From contig OZ024743.1 of the NCBI GenBank assembly GCA_964016885.1, positions 60,574,001 to 60,638,000 of the forward strand: a stretch of 64,000 bases of DNA. Reading direction: 5' to 3'. Position 1 is the stretch's first letter; each line of letters opens with the position of its first letter. Below, piece by piece: positions 3,682 through 63,562 of this stretch. A model generated the notes under the pieces. It saw only the letters and a program-made list of their open reading frames with translations. It made no database searches and was not told the origin of the DNA. This DNA is from Eledone cirrhosa (taxonomy: Eukaryota). Position numbers and translations under genes: made by a program.

Positions 3682-3733
<52 letters not shown>

Positions 3734-3745
3734 GTATATATATAT

Positions 3746-4232
3746 ATTGTTATACTTTGGGAGGGTCATGTTGCCAATAAGAAACACACGCACCAGTTGT
3801 TTTCACTTCAATTTATTATATATTTATAAATTTATAAATTTACAAATCTACAAACTTATAAATTTCTGGTTGGTTGGTTGGTTCCACAACCAGATAGTTG
3901 TTTATATATAGTCATAGTCCTTTCGTCACACACTCTGTGACCTCTTCAGTGACTGGGGATTCCTTTCTTTGTTTCTGTGCCTTTCCTTTCTTCTGTCCTA
4001 CGCCATTTTGTTTCTGTGTGTGTGTTGTGTGCTCAGTTTGCGCATGCGCCACATCCGGGTGTCTGTGTGTGTTTGTGTTCATTTATCTATTTGTTTATTT
4101 ATTTACATGTTGTTGGTTGGTTGTTTGTTCTATGTGTGTGTGTGTTTTCATTTTGTCCTTAATTGTAAGTTGTGATGTTGCTGTTCCACTCATATTTTCT
4201 ATTTAATTTTGGTTGTAATTCTTTTATGCTTA
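3746..4232 (-). mobile_element. 5'-truncated Penelope-like element (last EN codons plus 3' UTR/pLTR)
   Basis: Near-identical reverse complement of ~60070-60545; encodes IKELQPK end of the GIY-YIG ORF; (TA)n on both sides. Confidence 0.88.
3910..3954 (-). ncRNA. Minimal type I hammerhead ribozyme in PLE 3' UTR
   Basis: Minus reads agtca-CTGAAGA-g-gtcac(agagtgt)gtgac-GAAA-gga-CTA|tgact: 5-bp stem I, 5-bp stem II, CUA cleavage triplet. Confidence 0.75.
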
Positions 4233-12105: not shown

Positions 12106-12430
12106 GCTCTTTTTACAAAACGGTTTTTTCCATTTCAGGTAGATGCGCTCCATCATCCACTTTTCTAAAAAAATAAATCATACACAAAACGCCAGCACCA
12201 ACAATTTTGCAAAAAATGTCAACACGAATAGACTTGTTATTTTTATCTAAAGACATTTTTTCCAATTCCAACCCAACCTTCCCCTCAATGTATCTATTTC
12301 TCATTCTTTCTTCTGATGAAGGACTATCTTCCGGGACGTTAAGACACTCTTCCTGTTATATCAAGCGTTAAGCTAATATATCCCTTCCATATACTGTACC
12401 GATTGTGTTATTATTTCTGTTTACTTTTAC
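12105..12430 (+). mobile_element. (TA)n-inserted HHR-bearing element, family D; copies 58975-59190, 51540-51625, minus ~52010-52085 and ~56810-56945
   Basis: Shared gcaccaaca.ttttgcaa...tctaaagacatttttt...cttctgatgaagga...cttccatatactgtacc; ends in microsatellite. Confidence 0.8.
12310..12343 (+). ncRNA. Degenerate minimal hammerhead (GAAA mutated to GGGA)
   Basis: ctt-CTGATGA-a-gga(ctatct)tcc-GGGA-c-GTT|aag; intact GAAA in the sister copy at 59100. Confidence 0.6.
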
Positions 12431-12447
12431 ACACACACACACAGACA

Positions 12448-12515
<68 letters not shown>

Positions 12516-12516
<1 letters not shown>

Positions 12517-12858
12517 GAATATATGTATAGTGTATTTGGGAATATACGGTATGTTTAATTAAATAGATTTTGAAGACCTTGCGCTATTATTTTTAAAGTA
12601 GTGACTATGTCACTTACTTCTTTTTTCGGCAAAGGAAGGGAGAGAAGCTGACAGATTCTGTTTCACACGGTTGGTGATCCTCAGAGCAACGTATTCCCTG
12701 CCTCTGCCGAAAATTATAGAGGCTGGATTCTTATAGAATTCCATCAGCCTCTATAAACTTCGGCAGAGGCGGCGAGTATGTTGCTCCGAGGATCACCAAC
12801 AGTGTGAAACAGTATCTGTCAGCTTCTCTCCCTTTCTTTGCTATTTCAGAGCACCAAT

Positions 12859-12860
<2 letters not shown>
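12516..12860. mobile_element. Fold-back HHR element related to the 311-bp unit
   Basis: Arms 12629-12725 / 12746-12841; shares ttttgaagacct, cttatagaat and gctatttcagagca with the 311-bp unit; flanked by (TA)n. Confidence 0.82.
12646..12689 (-). ncRNA. Type I hammerhead ribozyme; mirror copy at 12781-12824 has a CCGAGGA core
   Basis: gct-CTGAGGA-t-cac(caacc)gtg-t-GAAAC-agaatct-GTC|agc; near-palindromic stem III acaga-a-tctgt. Confidence 0.78.
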
Positions 12861-12910
<50 letters not shown>

Positions 12911-14991: not shown

Positions 14992-15484
14992 CCGAGTTGG
15001 AAATATGATGTAATTGATAACTACTTGTATGTAGAGACAAATGGATCAATGTATCGATGGTTGCATGGATGTATCGATGGATATGAGGAGCGAGGGGGGG
15101 GGGTATAGATGGATGGATAGATAGATATGCGTATATATAAGCAAAAGGAGAGTGAATGAAAAGAATAATAAATAGATAAATAATTGATCGAACAAATTGA
15201 TTGACATAAAAAGGAAAACACTAAGTAGAAGAGGCCCAAGAAGTAGTAATGGTAGGACATTGTAAGCCATAGTAAAACTAAGCCGCATATATATGTGACT
15301 GTATTAAATCATTTACACTGAGAATAAACTGACAACTGAATAACAAGACACATATTCATATATATTTCAGCAAATTTGAAAAGATAATTAAATGAATTGT
15401 TCTGGCAGACATTAAGTGATAATGAGGAAGATGATAAATACACACGCCCATATACATATATATATAAATATATATATATATATA

Positions 15485-17080
15485 TTGGAATAAATGCTCT
15501 GAAATAGCGATATATATGTGAATATAGACATAGAATATTCGAAAATATTCTGTATGTTTATAATAAACATTTTGAAGACCTAATCGCTATAGAATAGAAT
15601 ACGTCACGTATTACAATTAGATTCTCGATAAAAGCAAGGGAAGTAAGTCTACGCGTTTCATTCTCGTTAGAAATCGTCAGGACTACATATCCAGTGCTTT
15701 TATCGAGAATGACACAGCTAGAGACTTATAGAATACTTAGCTGTGTACAGGAACTGGTTTGAAAGAGCGGTTGCCGGTCCGGCAGAAATTAGAAATTGGA
15801 ATAAATGCTCTGAAATAGCGATATATATGTGAATATAGACATAGAATATTCGAAAATATTCTGTATGTTTATAATAAACATTTTGAAGACCTAATCGCTA
15901 TAGAATAGAATACGTCACGTATTACAATTAGATTCTCGATAAAAGCAAGGGAAGTAAGTCTACGCGTTTCATTCTCGTTAGAAATCGTCAGGACTACATA
16001 TCCAGTGCTTTTATCGAGAATGACACAGCTAGAGACTTATAGAATACTTAGCTGTGTACAGGAACTGGTTTGAAAGAGCGGTTGCCGGTCCGGCAGAAAT
16101 TAGAAATTGGAATAAATGCTCTGAAATAGCGATATATATGTGAATATAGACATAGAATATTCGAAAATATTCTGTATGTTTATAATAAACATTTTGAAGA
16201 CCTAATCGCTATAGAATAGAATACGTCACGTATTACAATTAGATTCTCGATAAAAGCAAGGGAAGTAAGTCTACGCGTTTCATTCTCGTTAGAAATCGTC
16301 AGGACTACATATCCAGTGCTTTTATCGAGAATGACACAGCTAGAGACTTATAGAATACTTAGCTGTGTACAGGAACTGGTTTGAAAGAGCGGTTGCCGGT
16401 CCGGCAGAAATTAGAAATTGGAATAAATGCTCTGAAATAGCGATATATATGTGAATATAGACATAGAATATTCGAAAATATTCTGTATGTTTATAATAAA
16501 CATTTTGAAGACCTAATCGCTATAGAATAGAATACGTCACGTATTACAATTAGATTCTCGATAAAAGCAAGGGAAGTAAGTCTACGCGTTTCATTCTCGT
16601 TAGAAATCGTCAGGACTACATATCCAGTGCTTTTATCGAGAATGACACAGCTAGAGACTTATAGAATACTTAGCTGTGTACAGGAACTGGTTTGAAAGAG
16701 CGGTTGCCGGTCCGGCAGAAATTAGAAATTGGAATAAATGCTCTGAAATAGCGATATATATGTGAATATAGACATAGAATATTCGAAAATATTCTGTATG
16801 TTTATAATAAACATTTTGAAGACCTAATCGCTATAGAATAGAATACGTCACGTATTACAATTAGATTCTCGATAAAAGCAAGGGAAGTAAGTCTACGCGT
16901 TTCATTCTCGTTAGAAATCGTCAGGACTACATATCCAGTGCTTTTATCGAGAATGACACAGCTAGAGACTTATAGAATACTTAGCTGTGTACAGGAACTG
17001 GTTTGAAAGAGCGGTTGCCGGTCCGGCAGAAATTAGAAATTGGAATAAATGCTCTGAAATAGCGATATATATGTGAATAT
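15485..17080 (-). repeat. 311-bp HHR tandem array, left arm (5 units + 41 bp), putative non-LTR retrozyme
   Basis: ttggaataaatgctctg recurs at 15485, 15796, 16107, 16418, 16729, 17040; HHR on minus at 15643-15686 + 311k. Confidence 0.95.
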
Positions 17081-20000
17081 GTCTATATTCACATATATAT
17101 CGCTATTTCAGAGCATTTATTCCAATTTCTAATTTCTGCCGGACCGGCAACCGCTCTTTCAAACCAGTTCCTGTACACAGCTAAGTATTCTATAAGTCTC
17201 TAGCTGTGTCATTCTCGATAAAAGCACTGGATATGTAGTCCTGACGATTTCTAACGAGAATGAAACGCGTAGACTTACTTCCCTTGCTTTTATCGAGAAT
17301 CTAATTGTAATACGTGACGTATTCTATTCTATAGCGATTAGGTCTTCAAAATGTTTATTATAAACATACAGAATATTTTCGAATATTCTATGTCTATATT
17401 CACATATATATCGCTATTTCAGAGCATTTATTCCAATTTCTAATTTCTGCCGGACCGGCAACCGCTCTTTCAAACCAGTTCCTGTACACAGCTAAGTATT
17501 CTATAAGTCTCTAGCTGTGTCATTCTCGATAAAAGCACTGGATATGTAGTCCTGACGATTTCTAACGAGAATGAAACGCGTAGACTTACTTCCCTTGCTT
17601 TTATCGAGAATCTAATTGTAATACGTGACGTATTCTATTCTATAGCGATTAGGTCTTCAAAATGTTTATTATAAACATACAGAATATTTTCGAATATTCT
17701 ATGTCTATATTCACATATATATCGCTATTTCAGAGCATTTATTCCAATTTCTAATTTCTGCCGGACCGGCAACCGCTCTTTCAAACCAGTTCCTGTACAC
17801 AGCTAAGTATTCTATAAGTCTCTAGCTGTGTCATTCTCGATAAAAGCACTGGATATGTAGTCCTGACGATTTCTAACGAGAATGAAACGCGTAGACTTAC
17901 TTCCCTTGCTTTTATCGAGAATCTAATTGTAATACGTGACGTATTCTATTCTATAGCGATTAGGTCTTCAAAATGTTTATTATAAACATACAGAATATTT
18001 TCGAATATTCTATGTCTATATTCACATATATATCGCTATTTCAGAGCATTTATTCCAATTTCTAATTTCTGCCGGACCGGCAACCGCTCTTTCAAACCAG
18101 TTCCTGTACACAGCTAAGTATTCTATAAGTCTCTAGCTGTGTCATTCTCGATAAAAGCACTGGATATGTAGTCCTGACGATTTCTAACGAGAATGAAACG
18201 CGTAGACTTACTTCCCTTGCTTTTATCGAGAATCTAATTGTAATACGTGACGTATTCTATTCTATAGCGATTAGGTCTTCAAAATGTTTATTATAAACAT
18301 ACAGAATATTTTCGAATATTCTATGTCTATATTCACATATATATCGCTATTTCAGAGCATTTATTCCAATTTCTAATTTCTGCCGGACCGGCAACCGCTC
18401 TTTCAAACCAGTTCCTGTACACAGCTAAGTATTCTATAAGTCTCTAGCTGTGTCATTCTCGATAAAAGCACTGGATATGTAGTCCTGACGATTTCTAACG
18501 AGAATGAAACGCGTAGACTTACTTCCCTTGCTTTTATCGAGAATCTAATTGTAATACGTGACGTATTCTATTCTATAGCGATTAGGTCTTCAAAATGTTT
18601 ATTATAAACATACAGAATATTTTCGAATATTCTATGTCTATATTCACATATATATCGCTATTTCAGAGCATTTATTCCAATTTCTAATTTCTGCCGGACC
18701 GGCAACCGCTCTTTCAAACCAGTTCCTGTACACAGCTAAGTATTCTATAAGTCTCTAGCTGTGTCATTCTCGATAAAAGCACTGGATATGTAGTCCTGAC
18801 GATTTCTAACGAGAATGAAACGCGTAGACTTACTTCCCTTGCTTTTATCGAGAATCTAATTGTAATACGTGACGTATTCTATTCTATAGCGATTAGGTCT
18901 TCAAAATGTTTATTATAAACATACAGAATATTTTCGAATATTCTATGTCTATATTCACATATATATCGCTATTTCAGAGCATTTATTCCAATTTCTAATT
19001 TCTGCCGGACCGGCAACCGCTCTTTCAAACCAGTTCCTGTACACAGCTAAGTATTCTATAAGTCTCTAGCTGTGTCATTCTCGATAAAAGCACTGGATAT
19101 GTAGTCCTGACGATTTCTAACGAGAATGAAACGCGTAGACTTACTTCCCTTGCTTTTATCGAGAATCTAATTGTAATACGTGACGTATTCTATTCTATAG
19201 CGATTAGGTCTTCAAAATGTTTATTATAAACATACAGAATATTTTCGAATATTCTATGTCTATATTCACATATATATCGCTATTTCAGAGCATTTATTCC
19301 AATTTCTAATTTCTGCCGGACCGGCAACCGCTCTTTCAAACCAGTTCCTGTACACAGCTAAGTATTCTATAAGTCTCTAGCTGTGTCATTCTCGATAAAA
19401 GCACTGGATATGTAGTCCTGACGATTTCTAACGAGAATGAAACGCGTAGACTTACTTCCCTTGCTTTTATCGAGAATCTAATTGTAATACGTGACGTATT
19501 CTATTCTATAGCGATTAGGTCTTCAAAATGTTTATTATAAACATACAGAATATTTTCGAATATTCTATGTCTATATTCACATATATATCGCTATTTCAGA
19601 GCATTTATTCCAATTTCTAATTTCTGCCGGACCGGCAACCGCTCTTTCAAACCAGTTCCTGTACACAGCTAAGTATTCTATAAGTCTCTAGCTGTGTCAT
19701 TCTCGATAAAAGCACTGGATATGTAGTCCTGACGATTTCTAACGAGAATGAAACGCGTAGACTTACTTCCCTTGCTTTTATCGAGAATCTAATTGTAATA
19801 CGTGACGTATTCTATTCTATAGCGATTAGGTCTTCAAAATGTTTATTATAAACATACAGAATATTTTCGAATATTCTATGTCTATATTCACATATATATC
19901 GCTATTTCAGAGCATTTATTCCAATTTCTAATTTCTGCCGGACCGGCAACCGCTCTTTCAAACCAGTTCCTGTACACAGCTAAGTATTCTATAAGTCTCT

Positions 20001-20201
20001 AGCTGTGTCATTCTCGATAAAAGCACTGGATATGTAGTCCTGACGATTTCTAACGAGAATGAAACGCGTAGACTTACTTCCCTTGCTTTTATCGAGAATC
20101 TAATTGTAATACGTGACGTATTCTATTCTATAGCGATTAGGTCTTCAAAATGTTTATTATAAACATACAGAATATTTTCGAATATTCTATGTCTATATTC
20201 A
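17081..20201 (+). repeat. 311-bp HHR tandem array, right arm (10 units + 11 bp), inverted relative to the left arm
   Basis: gtctatattca recurs from 17081 to 20191 at period 311; reverse complement of the left-arm unit; ends in (TA)n. Confidence 0.95.
17235..17278 (+). ncRNA. Minimal type I hammerhead ribozyme, one per 311-bp unit (15 copies)
   Basis: gtagtc-CTGACGA-t-ttct(aacg)agaa-t-GAAAC-gc-GTA|gacttac; palindromic stem III ACGCGT; predicted cleavage after A17271; closed by a perfect 16-bp stem 17211-17226 / 17285-17300. Confidence 0.88.
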
Positions 20202-20608
20202 TATATATATATATATATATATATATTTATTTATATCCACATACATATGTATTCATATATACATATATATGTATATATGTATATATATATATACAAACAT
20301 ATATACATATATATAGGAACGTGTAGGACCCCGACGGCTGAGCTCAAGCCGTTTCGACATATATATATATTTAAGGAACGATCGACTTTCGTCAAATCGG
20401 ACCGAGGGAACAATGTTTCCGTTGGTCTTTCCAATTGCTAATACTATCTATCGGTCGCAACTCCAGGTAGAAGGAGCAACGTGAAATAAAGTGTCTTGCT
20501 CAAGGACATAACGCATCGCCAGGAATCGAACTCACAACCTTACGATTGCGAATCCAATTCTCTAACCACTCAGCCACACGCCTTCACTCAGCCACACGCC
20601 TTCCTAAT

Positions 20609-20684: not shown

Positions 20685-20718
20685 GTGTATATATATATAT
20701 ATATATATACAAACATAT

Positions 20719-20894
20719 AGTAACATGTATGACCCCGACGGCAGAGCTCAAGCCGTTTCGACGGCTAGCCGTCGATACGGCTTGAGCTCAGCCGTCGGGA
20801 TCATATATTTTCCTATTACCCACTCTACTACCCTAAGTATTGAGTACTCTGGTGCGTTATGGTCCACCTGGTTCCTTACCACAACTCCTTCGTT
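20719..20894. mobile_element. Fold-back (TA)n-targeted element, family G; copies 24112-24321, 56568-56767, half copies 20315-20358 and 50000-50058
   Basis: gaccccgacggc.gagctcaagccgtttcgacggct and its reverse complement, followed by a tail ending cttcgttata. Confidence 0.88.
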
Positions 20895-24114: not shown

Positions 24115-24321
24115 CGAAGGAAATGTGATAAGGAACCAGATGGATCATAACGAACCAAAGTACTCAATACTTAGGGTAGTAGAGTGGGTAATAGGAACAA
24201 GTAGGACCCCGACGGCTGAGCTCAAGCCGTTTCGACGGCTAATTCTGGACTAAAACATTTTTTAGTCCAGAATTAGCCGTCGAAACGGCTTGAGCTCACC
24301 CGTCGGGGTCATACTTGTTCT
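24112..24321. mobile_element. Family G fold-back element, long tail on the left
   Basis: Palindrome centred ~24258; tail is the reverse complement of ~20805-20894. Confidence 0.88.
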
Positions 24322-24346
24322 TATATATATATATATATATATTCAA

Positions 24347-25049: not shown

Positions 25050-25676
25050 TTGCAGTTGTCCTTCAGTTTTTCTAACCTCTTTAAAAAGAACTCGGAATGG
25101 TGGGCCTCCAGCCATGCCACTGTAAAATCTATCAGGCCGGAACATTTTCAGCACACCTTCGTGTATATAGAGATATAAATGATGAAACCAAAACATTAGC
25201 TCGAGTTATAATTGTTTCTACTTTTGGCACAAGGCCAGCAATTACCCAGTGCATTACTGGTACTTTATTTTATCGACCCCTTTGCAGTTGTCCTTCAGTT
25301 TTTCTAACCTCTTTAAAAAGAACTCGGAATGGTGGGCCTCCAGCCATGCCACTGTAAAATCTATCAGGCCGGAACATTTTCAGCACACCTTCGTGTATAT
25401 AGAGATATAAATGATGAAACCAAAACATTAGCTCGAGTTATAATTGTTTCTACTTTTGGCACAAGGCCAGCAATTACCCAGTGCATTACTGGTACTTTAT
25501 TTTATCGACCCCTTTGCAGTTGTCCTTCAGTTTTTCTAACCTCTTTAAAAAGAACTCGGAATGGTGGGCCTCCAGCCATGCCACTGTAAAATCTATCAGG
25601 CCGGAACATTTTCAGCACACCTTCGTGTATATAGAGATATAAATGATGAAACCAAAACATTAGCTCGAGTTATAAT
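25050..25676. repeat. 232-bp tandem repeat, 2.7 apparently identical copies, containing a family A SINE fragment
   Basis: tgcagttgtccttcag at 25051, 25283, 25515; identical ORF translations at 25097 and 25329. Confidence 0.93.
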
Positions 25677-28429: not shown

Positions 28430-28784
<355 letters not shown>

Positions 28785-40189: not shown

Positions 40190-40380
40190 ACGTTATTCCG
40201 GGTTGAATCGGAGGTAACCACAGTAAGTAAGGTACTCAATACATAGCAGAGTATAAAAGTTTTAATATAGATGAGATTCTACAGGACTAGAACTGTTTCA
40301 TTCTTTAGAAATCATCAGGAATCTCAGAGATTCCTGATGATTTCTAAAGAATGAAACAGTTCTAGTCCTGTAGAATCTCA

Positions 40381-40389
<9 letters not shown>
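40190..40389. mobile_element. Family E fold-back element with two intact back-to-back hammerheads
   Basis: Perfect palindrome 40263-40389 centred on 40326; tail 40190-40262 matches 60730-60808 in reverse. Confidence 0.9.
40327..40379 (+). ncRNA. Type I hammerhead ribozyme; mirror on minus at 40273-40325
   Basis: gagattc-CTGATGA-t-ttc(taaa)gaa-t-GAAAC-ag(ttctagtc)ct-GTA|gaatctc; 7-bp stem I, 4-bp stem III. Confidence 0.9.
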
Positions 40390-48501: not shown

Positions 48502-49675
48502 TTTAGCGAGGTTTTTGATATGAGACCCTCATAGAACTAGACATGAAAGGAATTTGCCCATTATACAGGAGTAAATCATGGAATAGCTAAGATAGGACTA
48601 AACATAAAATAGGTAAAGCCACCTTATGGTACGACAACCAGAGATAACAGAGTGTCATGTTCGTGGACGCTACTCCTGGAGGGAAATTAGCTAACCAGTG
48701 TAGAAAGGCCCTGAGAAAGACCCACTTAAAGATTAAGGTGGTAGAAAAGCCAGGAATTACCATAAAATCCCTGATCAGCAAAACCTACCCTTTTAAGAAA
48801 ACCCACTGTACTAATAAGAAATGTATTATATGTAAAGTAAACCCCCGGTAAACTGTAAAACTAGAAACGTAGTCTATAGCATAAGATGTACAGAGGGTAC
48901 TTGCAGAAACATGACAACAACATACATAGGCGAGACAGGTCGTAGCATAGGTGAAAGGATAGACCAAAACTGAGGGGAACTAAAAGGACGAAAAAACGGT
49001 TTAGTACTATACGAACACGCCAGACAACAACATGACGGTAACATAGACAACATAGAAATTAAAATAATATCTAAACATAGAAATGACCCAGCAGATAGGC
49101 AAATCATAGAGGCCAGTGAAATAGAACTTACAAGGCCAAAGCTAAACAGAAAAATTGAATGGAATAACAACACCCAAACAAACAATACTGACATAAGAGA
49201 AATATAAATAAATAAATAAATAAATACATACACAAGCACAATACCAACAAACACATATAAACACACACTAGTAAACTAAGATAGAATACAATAACCAAAA
49301 CACAGTCACCCAAACACGAACACACATCAAACACTATACACACACGCAAACGCATGCGCAGAGAAGAAGACAAAAATAAATAAATAAATAAACAGATTAA
49401 ATAAAGATGGCGTAGACATACAATATAACAGGAGGAAACAATAGCATCACTGACGATGTTGCAGATCTGCAAGGAAAGAACTTTGTTAGACTATATGTGT
49501 TTATATCTATATTATATCTGTATTTTTGACCGTTGGTCAGTCAATGGTAAACATTGAGGACCGAGTAAATTAACTGATATAAAAGATACAGAAGCGAAAA
49601 CCAATCAAACAGTGAGTGTGTTCTGTTATTAATTCTGGCAATATTATTAAAATAATATGACCCTTCCCAAGTATA
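48498..49675 (+). mobile_element. 5'-truncated, decayed Penelope-like element (GIY-YIG EN + 3' UTR), subfamily 2
   Basis: CPLYRSKSW...WYDNQR*QSVMFVDATPGGKL...CTNKKCIIC...CKTRNVVYSIRC...YIGETGRSIGER...RQIIEA; several stops; TA flanks. Confidence 0.9.
49445..49488 (+). ncRNA. Degenerate hammerhead in PLE 3' UTR
   Basis: catca-CTGACGA-t-gttgc(agatct)gcaag-GAAA-gaa-CTT|tgtt; mismatches in stems I and II. Confidence 0.55.
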
Positions 49676-49922
49676 TATATATACATATGTATGTATGTAT
49701 GTACGTATATATATGCACGTATTGTTCGAATCATATAATTCAAAAACTGTTATATGTGGATATATATGTATATATATATGTGTATATATATATATATATA
49801 TATAGTGACGAAAAATAAGTCAATTGCATGAACTCATAATCCTTTATTTACTGCTATATATATATTTCGATGATAGCCATTGAATGGCTCTGTGCTTATA
49901 GTGTTGATGGTATCAGAGCCTT

Positions 49923-50002
<80 letters not shown>

Positions 50003-50055
50003 AAAATGTATGACCCCGACGGCAGAGCTCAAGCCGTTTCGACGGCTATTTCTGG

Positions 50056-50117
<62 letters not shown>

Positions 50118-56280: not shown

Positions 56281-56505
56281 GCATATCAGTAAGAATCAAG
56301 GCGCGACGGCTCACCTCTTGTCGATTCAACAACTAGTTCTAGACTGTTTGCCAAAAATTGTACAGTTTTTAACTAGTTAGACAATTACTCAAGAGAGTAC
56401 TCGACAGTTGGGATAGTCAGCCGTAGGTTTTTTGGCAAACAGTCTGGAACTAGATGTTGAAACGACAAGAGGTTAGCCGTCGCGCTTTGATCCTTACTGA
56501 TATGC

Positions 56506-56510
<5 letters not shown>
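56275..56510. mobile_element. Fold-back (TA)n insert, ~83-bp arms
   Basis: ataaatgcatatcagtaag...tttgccaaaaa versus tttttggcaaa...cttactgatatgcatttat; GAAAC-gacaagaggttagcc-GTC resembles family G. Confidence 0.85.
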
Positions 56511-56557
<47 letters not shown>

Positions 56558-56567
56558 ATGTATATAT

Positions 56568-56767
56568 AGGAAAATAGTCAGGACCCCGACGGCAGAGTTC
56601 AAGCCGTTTCGACGGCTGTTTCTGGACTGTCCAGAAATAGCCGTCGAAACGGCTTGAGCTCTGCCGTCGGAGTCTTGACTCTTTTTCTATTACCCACTAT
56701 ACTAGCCAAAGTATCGAGTACTCTGGTGTGTTATGGTCCACCTGTTCCTTACCACACTTCCTTCGTT
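56568..56767. mobile_element. Family G fold-back element
   Basis: Palindrome centred on 56628; tail matches 20805-20894. Confidence 0.88.
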
Positions 56768-58939: not shown

Positions 58940-58975
<36 letters not shown>

Positions 58976-59099
58976 AAACGGCAGCACCAACAGTTTTGCA
59001 AGAGATGTCAACATGCATGGACCTGTTATTTTTATCTAAAGACATTTTTTCCAATTCTATCCCGCCCGTCCTCTCAATCTATCTTATTTCTCATTCTTT

Positions 59100-59132
59100 C
59101 TTCTGATGAAGGACTAGCGTCCGAAACGTTAA
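59100..59132 (+). ncRNA. Minimal hammerhead, family D
   Basis: ctt-CTGATGA-a-gga(ctagcg)tcc-GAAAC-GTT|aa; palindromic AACGTT; stem I shortened by a deletion between two cgttaa repeats. Confidence 0.7.
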
Positions 59133-59198
59133 CCTAATACATCCCTTCCATATACTGTACCGGTTGTGTTGTTATTTCTGTTTATCTTTTACACACAG

Positions 59199-59255
<57 letters not shown>

Positions 59256-59553
59256 ATACTTTGGGAGGGTCATGTTGCCAATAAGAAACACACGCACAAG
59301 TTGCTTTCACTTCAATTTATTATTATAAATTTATAATAAATTTATAAATTTCTGGTTGGTTGGTTGGTTGGTTCCACAACCAGATGATTGTTCATATATT
59401 GAAGGTCTCGCCAGTGTTCATTTATCCGTTCCCCTACACTACGAGCTGTCTCACCTATGTACACTATATTTTTGTCTCTACATTGTCCTTCGGTACATCT
59501 TATGCTATACACTACATTTCTAGTTTTACAGTTAATATGGGGGCTTATTTTAC

Positions 59554-60100
59554 AAGGAACAAGGCTAATAGAATAAACTCATGGTATGATAGCAATAAAT
59601 ACCAGAGTGTAATGTTCATCGATACAACCCCTAGAGGTGAATTAGCTTACAAATTTAGAAGGGCCCTAAATAAACATAAACTCAATATTAAGATAGTAGA
59701 AAGACCAGGTACCTCCGTAAACACACTCATTAGCAAGACATACCCTTTTCAAAGACCCTCATGTATAGATAAGAAATGTATAACCTGTAAAATAAGCCCC
59801 CATATTAACTGTAAAACTAGAAATGTAGTGTATAGCATAAGATGTACCGAAGGACAATGTAGAGACAAAAATATAGTGTACATAGGTGAGACAGCTCGTA
59901 GTGTAGGGGAACGGATAAATGAACACTGGCGAGACCTTCAAGATAGTAAAGAATCATCTGTACTCTACCAACATGCTAAAATAGAACACAAGGGTAAATT
60001 AGAGAACATAGAAATAAAAATAGAATCTACACACAGAAAAGACGCAATGTTTAGACAAATTACAGAGGCAATAAACATAAAAGAATTACAACCAAAATAA
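59554..60100 (+). CDS. C-terminal GIY-YIG endonuclease of a Penelope-like ORF (open frame, 5'-truncated)
   Basis: WYDSNKYQSVMFIDTTPRGEL...CIDKKCITC...CKTRNVVYSIRC...VYIGETARSVGERINEH...LYQHAKIEH...RQITEAINIKELQPK. Confidence 0.9.
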
Positions 60101-60345
60101 AATAGAAAATATGAGTGGAACAGCAACATCACATCTTACAATTAAGGACAGAATGAAAACACACACACACATAGAACAAACAACCAACCAGTAACATGTA
60201 AATAAACAAATAAATAAATGAACATAAACACACACAGACACCCGGATGTGGCGCATGCGCAGACTGAGCACACAACACACACACAGAAACAAAATGGCGT
60301 AGGACAGAACAAAGGAGAGGCACAGAAACAAAGAAATGAATCCCC

Positions 60346-60389
60346 AGTCACTGAAGAGGTCACAGAGTGTGTGACGAAAGAACTGTGAC
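60346..60389 (+). ncRNA. Hammerhead in PLE 3' UTR; cleavage triplet CUG here versus CUA in the 3910 copy
   Basis: gtca-CTGAAGA-g-gtcac(agagtgt)gtgac-GAAA-gaa-CTG|tgac. Confidence 0.7.
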
Positions 60390-60626
60390 AATATATGAAC
60401 AACCATCTGGTTGTGGAACCAACCAACCAACCAGAAATTTATGAATTTATAAATTTATTATAAATTTATTATAATAAATTGAAGTGAAAGCAACTGGTGC
60501 GTGTATTTCTTATTGGCAATATGACCCTCCCAAAGTATAACAATATCGGTTTCAACACACGATTTCAGATAAAGAATCTTGCTAAACAAATTCAGAAACG
60601 AAATATATATATATTATATTATGTAT

Positions 60627-60808
60627 AAATGGCTTCTACAGGACTAGAACTGTTTCATTTAGGAGAAATCATCAGGAAGCCTAATGATTTCTCCCGATGA
60701 AGCAGTCCTAGTCCTGTAGAAGCCATTTCTTTATTAAATATTTATACTCTGCTATGTATTGAGTGCCTTACTTATTGTGGTTACCCCCGATTGAACCCGG
60801 GATAAACA
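60627..60808. mobile_element. Family E fold-back element: HHR on minus 60631-60681, decayed plus copy
   Basis: Minus reads ggcttc-CTGATGA...GAAAC-agttctagtcct-GTA|gaagcc; compensatory stem I changes relative to 40327 (gattc/gaatc to gcttc/gaagc). Confidence 0.85.
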
Positions 60809-60884
60809 TATATATGTATATATGTACATGAGAGTATTGAAGTTTGCATGAAGCATTGTGGAATAATAAAAACATTTTTATGGG

Positions 60885-61500: not shown

Positions 61501-62580
61501 AAAATATTATATATATATATATATATATAAGTATGTATACGTACGTACATACATATATGTGTACAGACGTACAGTAGTATGTATATATATACATACATGC
61601 ACACATATATATATATATATACGTATGGGTTTACCGAACATTTATTATAATGTTCGGTTTGTTTGTAAACAAACAGCCCGAATTACGACGTACAGTGCTC
61701 GGCAACCATCGTCGCCCTTTTGTTCAACACTGACACAGGAACGATGTACTAGTTTCAAGATTATTAGCTATTGTCAGCATCGTATACCTTTCTGTCAGAT
61801 GGATGAACGTCTGAAAGTATATACTTTCCTTATGCATATTAACGGCTGAGCAGCCTAATTTGCATATCGAGTGAGTTAGTCGGTCGGGCGTACCGTAATT
61901 ACAGTTATTTACAGTTATCGCACATCTCATATATGCATAATGGTTTATAAATCAGGCAGGAGACCAGTAACTTTGGGAAGACACTTCTGTTCATTACATC
62001 TATCTCAGTGCTTTAGTGGTACCTTTATTTAACAACCCTCCACAATGATGGGCTTGTACTTTATTTTTTCTCAAACCCTGGAGAATGAAAAGTAATGTTG
62101 ACCCCGGCGGTATTTGAACTCAGAAACTAAATAGCCATAAGTAAATACCGTATGAGTTCTATCGATTCTGAAATTCCAATAGAAAACTGAAAACCCTAAC
62201 CACTAAGCCACTTCTCATCACCATATTTCGTACAGTTCTCAACGGATAGAAAAAAAATGGTACCATTAAGATTTCTAAAATTTGAGATAGAAATCTTATA
62301 ACGTTTCCTATTTCCTGGATTTCTCGTATTTCAAAGATTCTTTTCTTGTATTTCAAAGATAAATATTGAAAGACTATTAGAAGGAAAATAAACGTAATAT
62401 ATGTATTATCCGTGAGATAAGAATATGAAGAGGAATACAAATCATTCCCTGCAGATTCACAAATTATCTTGAGTGGAAAATGTGGTTAATGTCGAAAGGA
62501 CATCACTATATTTAGATTTAATATATACATACACAAAACACACATACACGTGCGTATATATATATACACACACACATATG

Positions 62581-62831: not shown

Positions 62832-62894
<63 letters not shown>

Positions 62895-62901
<7 letters not shown>

Positions 62902-63073
62902 ATATTTGGGGACGGTCATATTGTTGTAATAATATTGCCAGAAATAATAATAGAACACACTCACTGTTTGGTTTGGTTTGGTTTGGGTTGGTTTTCGCTT
63001 CTGTATATTTTATACCTCCATAGCTAATTTATCTGGCAATCAATGTTTATCATTGATTTACCAACGGTTAAAA

Positions 63074-63122
<49 letters not shown>

Positions 63123-63562
63123 ATCAAAGTTCTTTCGTCACGCATCTGTGACATCATCAGTGGTACTATTATGCTTCCTCCCATTGTATTTTAATTCCTA
63201 AGCGATCTTTATTTTATTTATTTATTTAGTCTTGTCTCTGTCTCTGTTTGCGCATGCGTTTGCGTGTGTTTTCCCTGTTTGGTGTGTGTGTTCGCGTTTG
63301 AGTGTATGTGTTTTTGTATTCTATCTTTGTTCACAAGTGTGTTTGTTGTTATTGTACTTGTGTATGTATGTACTTGTGTATGTATTTATTTATTTATATT
63401 TCCCTTGGGTCAGTATTATGTGTTTGGGTATGGTTATTGTTGTTATTCTGTTCTTTCTGTTCAACTTTGGTTTTCTTAGTTCTATCTCAGTTGCTTCTCT
63501 GATTTGCTTACCTGTTGAGTTATTTCTATGCTTAGATATTATTTTAATTTCTATGCTCTCTA
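62895..63562 (-). mobile_element. 5'-truncated Penelope-like element, subfamily 2, with HHR at 63122-63165
   Basis: Minus encodes IEIKIISKHRNNSTGKQIREATEIELRKPKLNRK; UTR like 49150-49675; tacca-CTGATGA-t-gtcac(agatgc)gtgac-GAAA-gaa-CTT|tgata. Confidence 0.85.

Follow-up and report, generated by a model that had tools for sequence, protein, structure and literature searches.

Inverted hammerhead ribozyme arrays in Eledone cirrhosa: a young retrozyme probably copied into (TA)n by a Penelope-like enzyme

A 64,000-nucleotide (nt) window of the Eledone cirrhosa genome (GCA_964016885.1, contig OZ024743.1, positions 60,574,001 to 60,638,000, forward strand) contains two inverted tandem arrays of a 311-bp non-coding unit, each unit carrying a predicted hammerhead ribozyme. 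We consider it probable that this element is a young insertion of a retrozyme lacking long terminal repeats (non-LTR), laid down head-to-head in a (TA)n tract by the reverse transcriptase (RT)/endonuclease of a Penelope-like element (PLE) acting in trans, with an RNA template that was probably a circle of one unit. On all testable features the hammerhead family is a metazoan non-LTR retrozyme, with self-cleavage and circular RNA predicted. It is not an autonomous PLE, because the unit has no open reading frame (ORF) for an RT and a GIY-YIG endonuclease. Positions below are those of the window, the whole stretch analyzed, unless they are called unit positions, which are counted from the first base 3′ of the predicted cut (window 17272 = 1).

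Tandem Repeats Finder resolved the region into two period-311 arrays, and exact extension was used to set the borders of the arms (Table 1). An initial annotation, made from the letters of the window alone, had described one array of 15 units without differences in (TA)n. The period, the absence of any mismatch among the 15 units, the (TA)n on both sides, and the lack of an ORF (longest stop-free frame 59 amino acids (aa), longest ATG frame 30 aa) were all confirmed, but the array is not single: five hammerheads lie on the minus strand and ten on the plus strand, in two inverted arms whose ends are offset (unit positions 166 and 131). The hammerhead cores of arm 1 start at 16924, 16613, 16302, 15991, and 15680 on the minus strand, and its RNA-sense 3′ end, the “tail” end at unit position 166, faces left. 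Those of arm 2 start at 17241 + 311k (k = 0–9) on the plus strand, and its RNA-sense 3′ end (the “short” end, unit position 131) adjoins the unit's own AUAUAUAU (133–140). The unit has a GC content of 35% and no LTR.

The same anatomy was found throughout the family. Two arms with their 3′ ends outwards were seen in 14 of 15 loci picked by BLAST, in 54 of the 57 resolved among 60 consecutive loci picked by their tail, and, when the first 36 Mb of C1 were worked through regardless of ends, in 14 of the 17 loci that could be resolved; one-armed insertions also occur (L039, L070, L089, L092, L217–L219, L227, and L231). Wherever both ends of a two-armed locus were in view, one was short and the other bore the tail (83/83). 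Only 23 of these 83 loci had been picked regardless of their ends, most of the others via one end, and in loci chosen by the short end because they lacked the exact tail pattern, a tail end was nonetheless present within a few bases. The short end falls at about unit positions 115–140 and the tail end at about 157–173 (modal positions 131/140 and 166, respectively), and the tail measures 26–35 nt. The short end adjoins AUAUAUAU and can therefore base-pair with a (TA)n primer; homology at the tail end amounts to about 2 nt. TA stands immediately beyond the far end in 50 of 52 loci. Target duplications of about 9–12 bp were detected in 5 of the 83 loci (control mean 0.35, maximum 2), being visible where the target repeat is interrupted close to the cut; duplications longer than 4 bp are a retrozyme trait.

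The published systems compared are metazoan non-LTR retrozymes (Cervera and de la Pena 2020, PMC7229834), PLE insertions (Craig et al. 2021, 10.1101/2021.04.23.441226; Arkhipova et al. 2013, PMC3846280), the Poseidon PLE of Anolis in vitro (Frangieh et al. 2024, PMC11167929), and vertebrate retrozymes as PLE derivatives (Li, Clavereau, Pollet 2026, bioRxiv 10.64898/2026.07.22.740005). The marks of PLEs include an inverted 5′-truncated copy, a one-sided tail of 30–40 bp, and microsatellite targets (Craig 2021; PMC3846280), and head-to-head inversion, a tail at one end, and duplications of about 9–10 bp are shared between PLE insertions and the loci studied here. Unlike PLE insertions, the retrozyme loci have no RT/endonuclease ORF, and both of their arms are multi-unit hammerhead arrays. 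The PLE-type mobilization first proposed from the window is supported by this tail and inversion anatomy across the family. Inverted repeats are prone to long-read fold-back and assembly errors, and N gaps are present in a few loci (L055, L094, and L205); with more than 80 loci showing unequal arms, differing flanks, fixed end positions, target duplications, and diverse junctions, it is hardly conceivable that the inversions are artefacts of that kind.

Inner junctions were analyzed in the tail-picked loci, leaving out three unresolved ones (57/60 used). The two arms of the window meet in a perfect hairpin whose loop has 4 nt, which prompted us to consider fold-back as a general mechanism, whereby one cDNA would fold back and self-prime its own copy, the tail then being trimmed from that copy. 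Such self-priming has been put forward from palindromic PLE junctions (PMC3846280), and the lengths of the two arms do correlate weakly (rho 0.35, P 0.01). Across the family, near-symmetric, hairpin-like junctions were in no excess (4/54 versus 3.6 expected); the window's hairpin loop therefore appears to be due to chance, and fold-back was ruled out as the general mechanism. In 20 of 52 loci, the window included (10.05 versus 5.14 units), it is the tailless arm that extends farther 5′; neither arm contains the other and, for this reason, neither can have been copied from the other. We regard self-priming as very improbable for the hammerhead family, where it is already largely refuted unless DNA expansion after insertion lies behind every one of the 20 cases, and the retrozyme junctions argue against it as proposed for PLEs.

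Both arms instead read as cDNA extended inwards from a target end. Overlaps of at least 2 nt were observed in 24 of 34 insertion-free arm junctions, compared with 18% by chance, and extra bases (1–16) in 20 of 54 junctions. Inner arm ends were not enriched at the ribozyme cut (0/54 and 4/54 versus 3.6 expected). Two primed cDNAs joined via their 3′ ends fits this junction pattern.

By motif and pairing, all 15 units of the window contain one complete type I hammerhead (core CUGACGA / GAAA / UA), in line with the initial annotation, which had also correctly identified the palindromic stem III (ACGCGU) and placed cleavage after A17271, the consensus (predicted) position. The predicted pairing comprises a stem I of 6 bp with one bulge, CUGACGA, a stem II of 4 bp resting on a U.U rather than a Watson–Crick base pair, and GAAA; stem III is a single base pair closed by the palindromic ACGCGU. 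Two such palindromes are predicted to pair at −9.5 kcal/mol, as a dimeric ribozyme needs. None of 36 distinct fixed substitutions falls in the catalytic core (99 loci; L081 and L095, mosaic or expanded, and L223, which overlaps L058, were left out). Common variants lie at the variable N7, in loop II, or where they keep or improve the pairing of stems I and II. The conserved core and stems are good structural evidence for a hammerhead, though no proof of activity. The monomer was predicted to fold at −72.8 kcal/mol (z −4.2; 0 of 100 shuffles equally stable) and, as a circle, at −68.6 kcal/mol, compared with −48.8 ± 4.4 kcal/mol for shuffles.

These properties align with those of metazoan non-LTR retrozymes, which likewise have non-coding tandem units of 150–450 bp, GC contents below 50%, a type I hammerhead in each unit, and a strongly self-paired monomer (PMC7229834). 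The 1-bp stem III with a palindromic tetraloop resembles that of axolotl HHR_Amex1, and the U.U at the base of stem II that of HHR_Amex2; axolotl retrozyme ribozymes with these oddities cleave well as dimers (PMC7229834). Retrozyme identity, as first proposed for the window, is thus supported by size, GC content, one hammerhead per unit, lack of coding capacity, dispersal, and the self-paired monomer. For the retrozymes of PMC7229834 cleavage and circular RNA are experimental findings; for the present family they are predictions. The main text of that paper, as excerpted, describes no “inverted” or “opposite” arrangement and no analysis of insertion ends, and mobilization by PLEs is only proposed there. 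Vertebrate retrozymes are similarly regarded as non-autonomous PLE partners, with similar unit sizes (bioRxiv 10.64898/2026.07.22.740005); that study argues from co-occurrence and the phylogeny of pseudo-LTRs (pLTRs), and its text, as excerpted, analyzes neither tails nor target sites and does not cover molluscs.

Exact matches of one unit 27-mer put the family at ≥16,535 units genome-wide, or ∼5 Mb. The junction of TA with the tail gave 1030 exact matches genome-wide, which bears out the dispersed TA-flanked copies expected in the initial annotation, and the short-end junction 1207, some of them inside a variant unit. Extrapolation from the first 36 Mb of C1, which hold 18 loci, suggests roughly 1,500–1,800 loci. 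The most frequent unit is 310 bp long; that of the window, at 311 bp, belongs to a minor haplotype. The family is young, since non-fixed changes amount to only 0.175 per unit; typical loci show 0.056% scattered divergence (53 loci). The few changes per unit and the identity of the window's 15 units agree with the youth originally inferred for the insertion. No coding DNA was found inside the insertions at the 60 tail-picked loci. A diverged subfamily (L204 and L215), with about 15 differences per unit and an altered tail sequence, has kept the two-end layout.

Information on the template was sought in the distribution of variants among units. The two arms of a locus carry one haplotype, rare variants fixed in all units included. 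In 53 loci (the 60 minus L045, L055, L059, L081, L093, L094, and L095, for N gaps, broken chains, mosaicism, or expansion), 11 rare fixed variants were counted, of the same order as the non-fixed changes per unit, and non-fixed variants stood at an equal index in both arms in only two loci, over 144 overlapping units. Three rare variants (T233C, T120G+C132T, and A89T) were followed genome-wide. T233C is fixed in all eight units of both arms of L083 and elsewhere occurs only in two single units on other backgrounds. No single-unit “parent” could be accepted for the fixed variants: the single units with T233C carry different haplotypes, and the one with A89T is the innermost, partial unit of L202. 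Only a bottleneck of one unit followed by repeated copying accounts for a new variant in every unit of both arms, an outcome expected of reverse transcription proceeding round a monomer circle, as in the retrozyme model of PMC7761336. In a post hoc test on the variants of 99 loci, 8 of 26 fixed changes were A-to-G on the RNA strand, compared with 5 of 72 changes confined to single units (Fisher P 0.005), with A-to-G exceeding T-to-C by 8:3 (P 0.075); this excess is only suggestive of RNA editing before insertion. In three sequencing runs from other studies (kind not on record), the unit was recovered as a 340-nt contig closing on itself; tandem DNA gives the same, and the contig was not used as evidence for circles. 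A further run, possibly from the source sample, was not treated as independent. Among the runs listed for the unit none was recorded as RNA, which has no bearing on expression.

A number of observations weigh against a cleaved monomer circle as the template, or against parts of the wider account. On the side of the ribozyme, the Rfam search suggested in the initial annotation was unsuccessful, the unit matching no hammerhead model at the gathering cut-off or at E ≤ 10; related hammerheads of the sibling family and of PLEs in three other loci also went unmatched. For the window haplotype, the core is mispaired in the local fold of lowest energy (−12.9 kcal/mol versus −2.0 kcal/mol for the monomeric hammerhead fold). 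Avoidance of the catalytic core by fixed substitutions is weak evidence when taken alone (of 80 single-unit changes, 3 fall in the core). Hammerhead cleavage is, moreover, dispensable for PLE insertion in vitro (PMC11167929). As for the variants, T120G+C132T is fixed in two loci genome-wide and A89T occurs in four multi-unit loci and one single unit, such that neither is private, and the assembly represents one haplotype, from which parent arrays may be missing. In L095, the first two units of both arms share a haplotype that then gives way to another, C205T is found in the first unit only of both arms of L077, and L068 is mosaic; none of the three can be explained without a multimeric template, a template switch, or conversion. 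A 5-unit periodicity predicted for L057 on the basis of a 5-unit circle failed to appear. In L081/L124/L207 (G000 C1, 97.46–97.48 Mb), finally, one arm has reached about 46 units, and the sets of variants within it recur at irregular spacing, which shows secondary, satellite-like expansion of a retrozyme insertion as DNA.

Several of these points would be accommodated if twin priming by a PLE enzyme usually used an uncleaved, linear, multimeric read-through RNA, with circles rare or irrelevant. The mosaic loci, the insertion of hammerhead mutants in vitro (PMC11167929), and the presence of two of the three tested rare variants in more than one locus all favor such a template, and any clonal array would give clonal multimeric RNA. 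A linear multimer cannot, however, lengthen arrays or fix a new variant in all units, T233C is both private and fixed, and index-shared variants were seen in 2 loci where ∼25 would be expected, assuming parents as variable as present arrays; we therefore judge a predominantly linear template to be unlikely. Still less credit is given to the insertion of short pLTR-like copies followed by minisatellite amplification through unequal exchange, with gene conversion homogenizing the arms, a local-amplification scenario discussed in bioRxiv 10.64898/2026.07.22.740005. It is favored by L081, with its arm of about 46 units, by L058, where a variant pair recurs 7 units apart, and by L057. It is made improbable by the typical loci, which lack repeated internal variants and show only scattered divergence, by the very young loci, which already have two multi-unit arms of one haplotype, and by the window itself, without a difference in 15 units. 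Copying round a one-unit circle is hence retained as the probable usual route: the rolling-circle part of the initial proposal is supported indirectly by rare variants fixed throughout both arms, while its restriction to monomers does not extend to the three mosaic loci, which need multimers.

Candidate helper enzymes were looked for among the resident PLEs. The one in the window (PLE-A, 59248–60600) is 5′-truncated, retaining the endonuclease end only, and has an inverted pLTR and a hammerhead at 60351 in (TA)n; related fragments lie near 3700–4230, 48600–49700, and 62860–63560. The PLE-A family has 58,088 candidates, and young copies elsewhere have open RT-endonuclease frames of 840–1160 aa. 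A second element, PLE-E (L209–L213; G000 C1 and C2), is very young and 4202 bp long, with overlapping frames of about 450 and 775 aa, the latter intact in many copies. It inserts head-to-head, with arms that continue past the hammerhead into another, identical full unit, and has the same hammerhead architecture as the retrozyme unit. Insertions of both PLEs have one short and one long end, as in the retrozyme. No significant sequence likeness to the 311-bp unit was found for PLE-A (71 of 300 shuffles scored as well) or PLE-E (142 of 300), and their tails measure about 58 and about 61 nt, respectively; apparent unit–PLE matches in L117, L151, and L198 proved to be nested retrozyme insertions. 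The co-resident PLE initially suggested as helper was accordingly set aside, given its endonuclease end only, the absence of shared sequence, and its tail of about 58 nt versus 26–35 nt. That no autonomous PLE matching the unit in sequence or tail length was present in 68 PLE-containing stretches and four full-length PLE-E loci, a survey that did not extend to other families such as those with an N-terminal endonuclease, also counts against a PLE-driven origin.

The insertion may then have proceeded as follows. A tandem transcript would self-cleave, probably as a hammerhead dimer, and be ligated to a circle of 310/311 nt, as the literature on such families suggests. A PLE endonuclease would nick both strands of (TA)n about 9–12 nt apart, the spacing of the duplications observed in five loci. 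One 3′ end would prime a cDNA near unit positions 131–140, with the RNA's AUAUAUAU pairing with the target, and the other near 161–173, in keeping with the two observed ends. Both cDNAs would circle the template for a variable number of turns, and their 3′ ends would be joined by microhomology or short fill-in, as the junctions suggest, through a presumed repair pathway. A minority of events would have used multimeric RNA, and a few arrays probably grew later as DNA. A more specific version, which we put forward tentatively and at rather less than even odds, is that a dimeric PLE enzyme nicks both (TA)n strands and loads two RTs 35 nt apart on one hammerhead-made circle, the cDNAs then being joined head-to-head.

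In the twin priming of L1 elements, cDNAs start from each of two target 3′ ends and are linked through microhomology, which gives rise to an inversion. For L1 this is a minority outcome with variable internal sites. Unlike in L1, twin priming appears to be the rule in the retrozyme, with two fixed sites and a repeated template. The Poseidon PLE protein of Anolis cuts and extends both target strands in vitro, starting at two internal RNA sites that bracket the tail, and its targets are AT-rich (PMC11167929). Poseidon showed no strand difference in start site, whereas retrozyme insertions use each site once; that study did not take up the pairing of sites within an insertion or the joining of two cDNAs. 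One of the two retrozyme sites has TA microhomology. Neither a description of head-to-head, tail-bearing retrozyme arrays nor a report of twin priming for PLEs was found in open-licence papers and bioRxiv main texts. Retrozymes as a class are known, and the rule of one end of each kind within an insertion is an addition to the in vitro findings on PLEs.

Table 1. Positions of the two-armed hammerhead array and its parts in the window
Feature	Positions	Strand	Basis
Left (TA)n target flank	15450..15483	.	none further
Arm 1, RNA-sense on the minus strand: 5.14 identical units, 5 hammerheads	15484..17080	-	exact run, 0 mismatches
35-nt tail, unit positions 132–166, at left end only, missing at right end	15484..15518	-	exact extension
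Head-to-head inversion junction, 3-nt microhomology (TAT)	17078..17080	.	arms overlap by 3 nt
Arm 2: 10.05 identical units, 10 hammerheads	17078..20201	+	exact run, 0 mismatches
First plus-strand type I hammerhead, predicted cut after A17271	17235..17278	+	motif and pairing
Monomer between successive predicted cuts, 311 nt; putative RNA circle with strong self-pairing	17272..17582	+	folding
Right (TA)n target flank, imperfect farther out	20202..20315	.	none further

An older sibling retrozyme lies close by in the window (12512–12862), with a unit of about 315 bp that is 75–80% alike over unit positions of about 60–245. The sibling family (2050 candidates genome-wide) has a distinct hammerhead with a 4-bp stem III and the same head-to-head layout and two ends. 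As it keeps the priming region and both ends despite a different hammerhead, that region may be the cis signal.

Other hammerhead-bearing repeats were noted. Tandem families with units of about 484–502, 466, and 375 bp and a palindromic ACUAGU stem III are found among L049, L094, and L132, with inverted arms at L049; an old fragment of an ACUAGU-type family was spotted by eye at about 61620–61920 of the window. Short TA-flanked fold-back insertions at 40190–40389 and 60620–60822 have a hammerhead stem II resembling that of the 311-bp family and two unequal ends, and further hammerhead-bearing fragments adjoin TA runs at 28462–28625, 12180–12450, and 58970–59200. A small palindromic element with variable centers recurs by TA runs (20301–20358, 20705–20816, 24191–24324, 49986–50058, and 56500–56674). 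At 25050–25676 there are 2.7 identical copies of a 232-bp sequence that has no hammerhead motif and includes part of an interspersed repeat, an arrangement suggestive of local duplication or of an effect of assembly.

With its multi-unit arms and trackable variants, this young family gives genomic evidence on the machinery that moves retrozymes and on whether the circle is the template (PMC7229834; PMC7761336), as well as on the inverted repeats with a one-sided tail left by PLEs (Craig 2021; PMC3846280; PMC11167929). A concrete assay follows, in which a 310-nt circle and a (TA)n target would be combined with resident PLE proteins that have intact frames. Were a dimeric enzyme on one circle to be the true mechanism, it would provide a single-step account of the inverted pLTR and one-sided tail of PLEs and of the tandem arrays of retrozymes, and would replace the self-priming model. 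The arrays would then be a fossil record of Penelope insertion on an RNA circle, and the A-to-G excess would be editing of that circle written into the genome.

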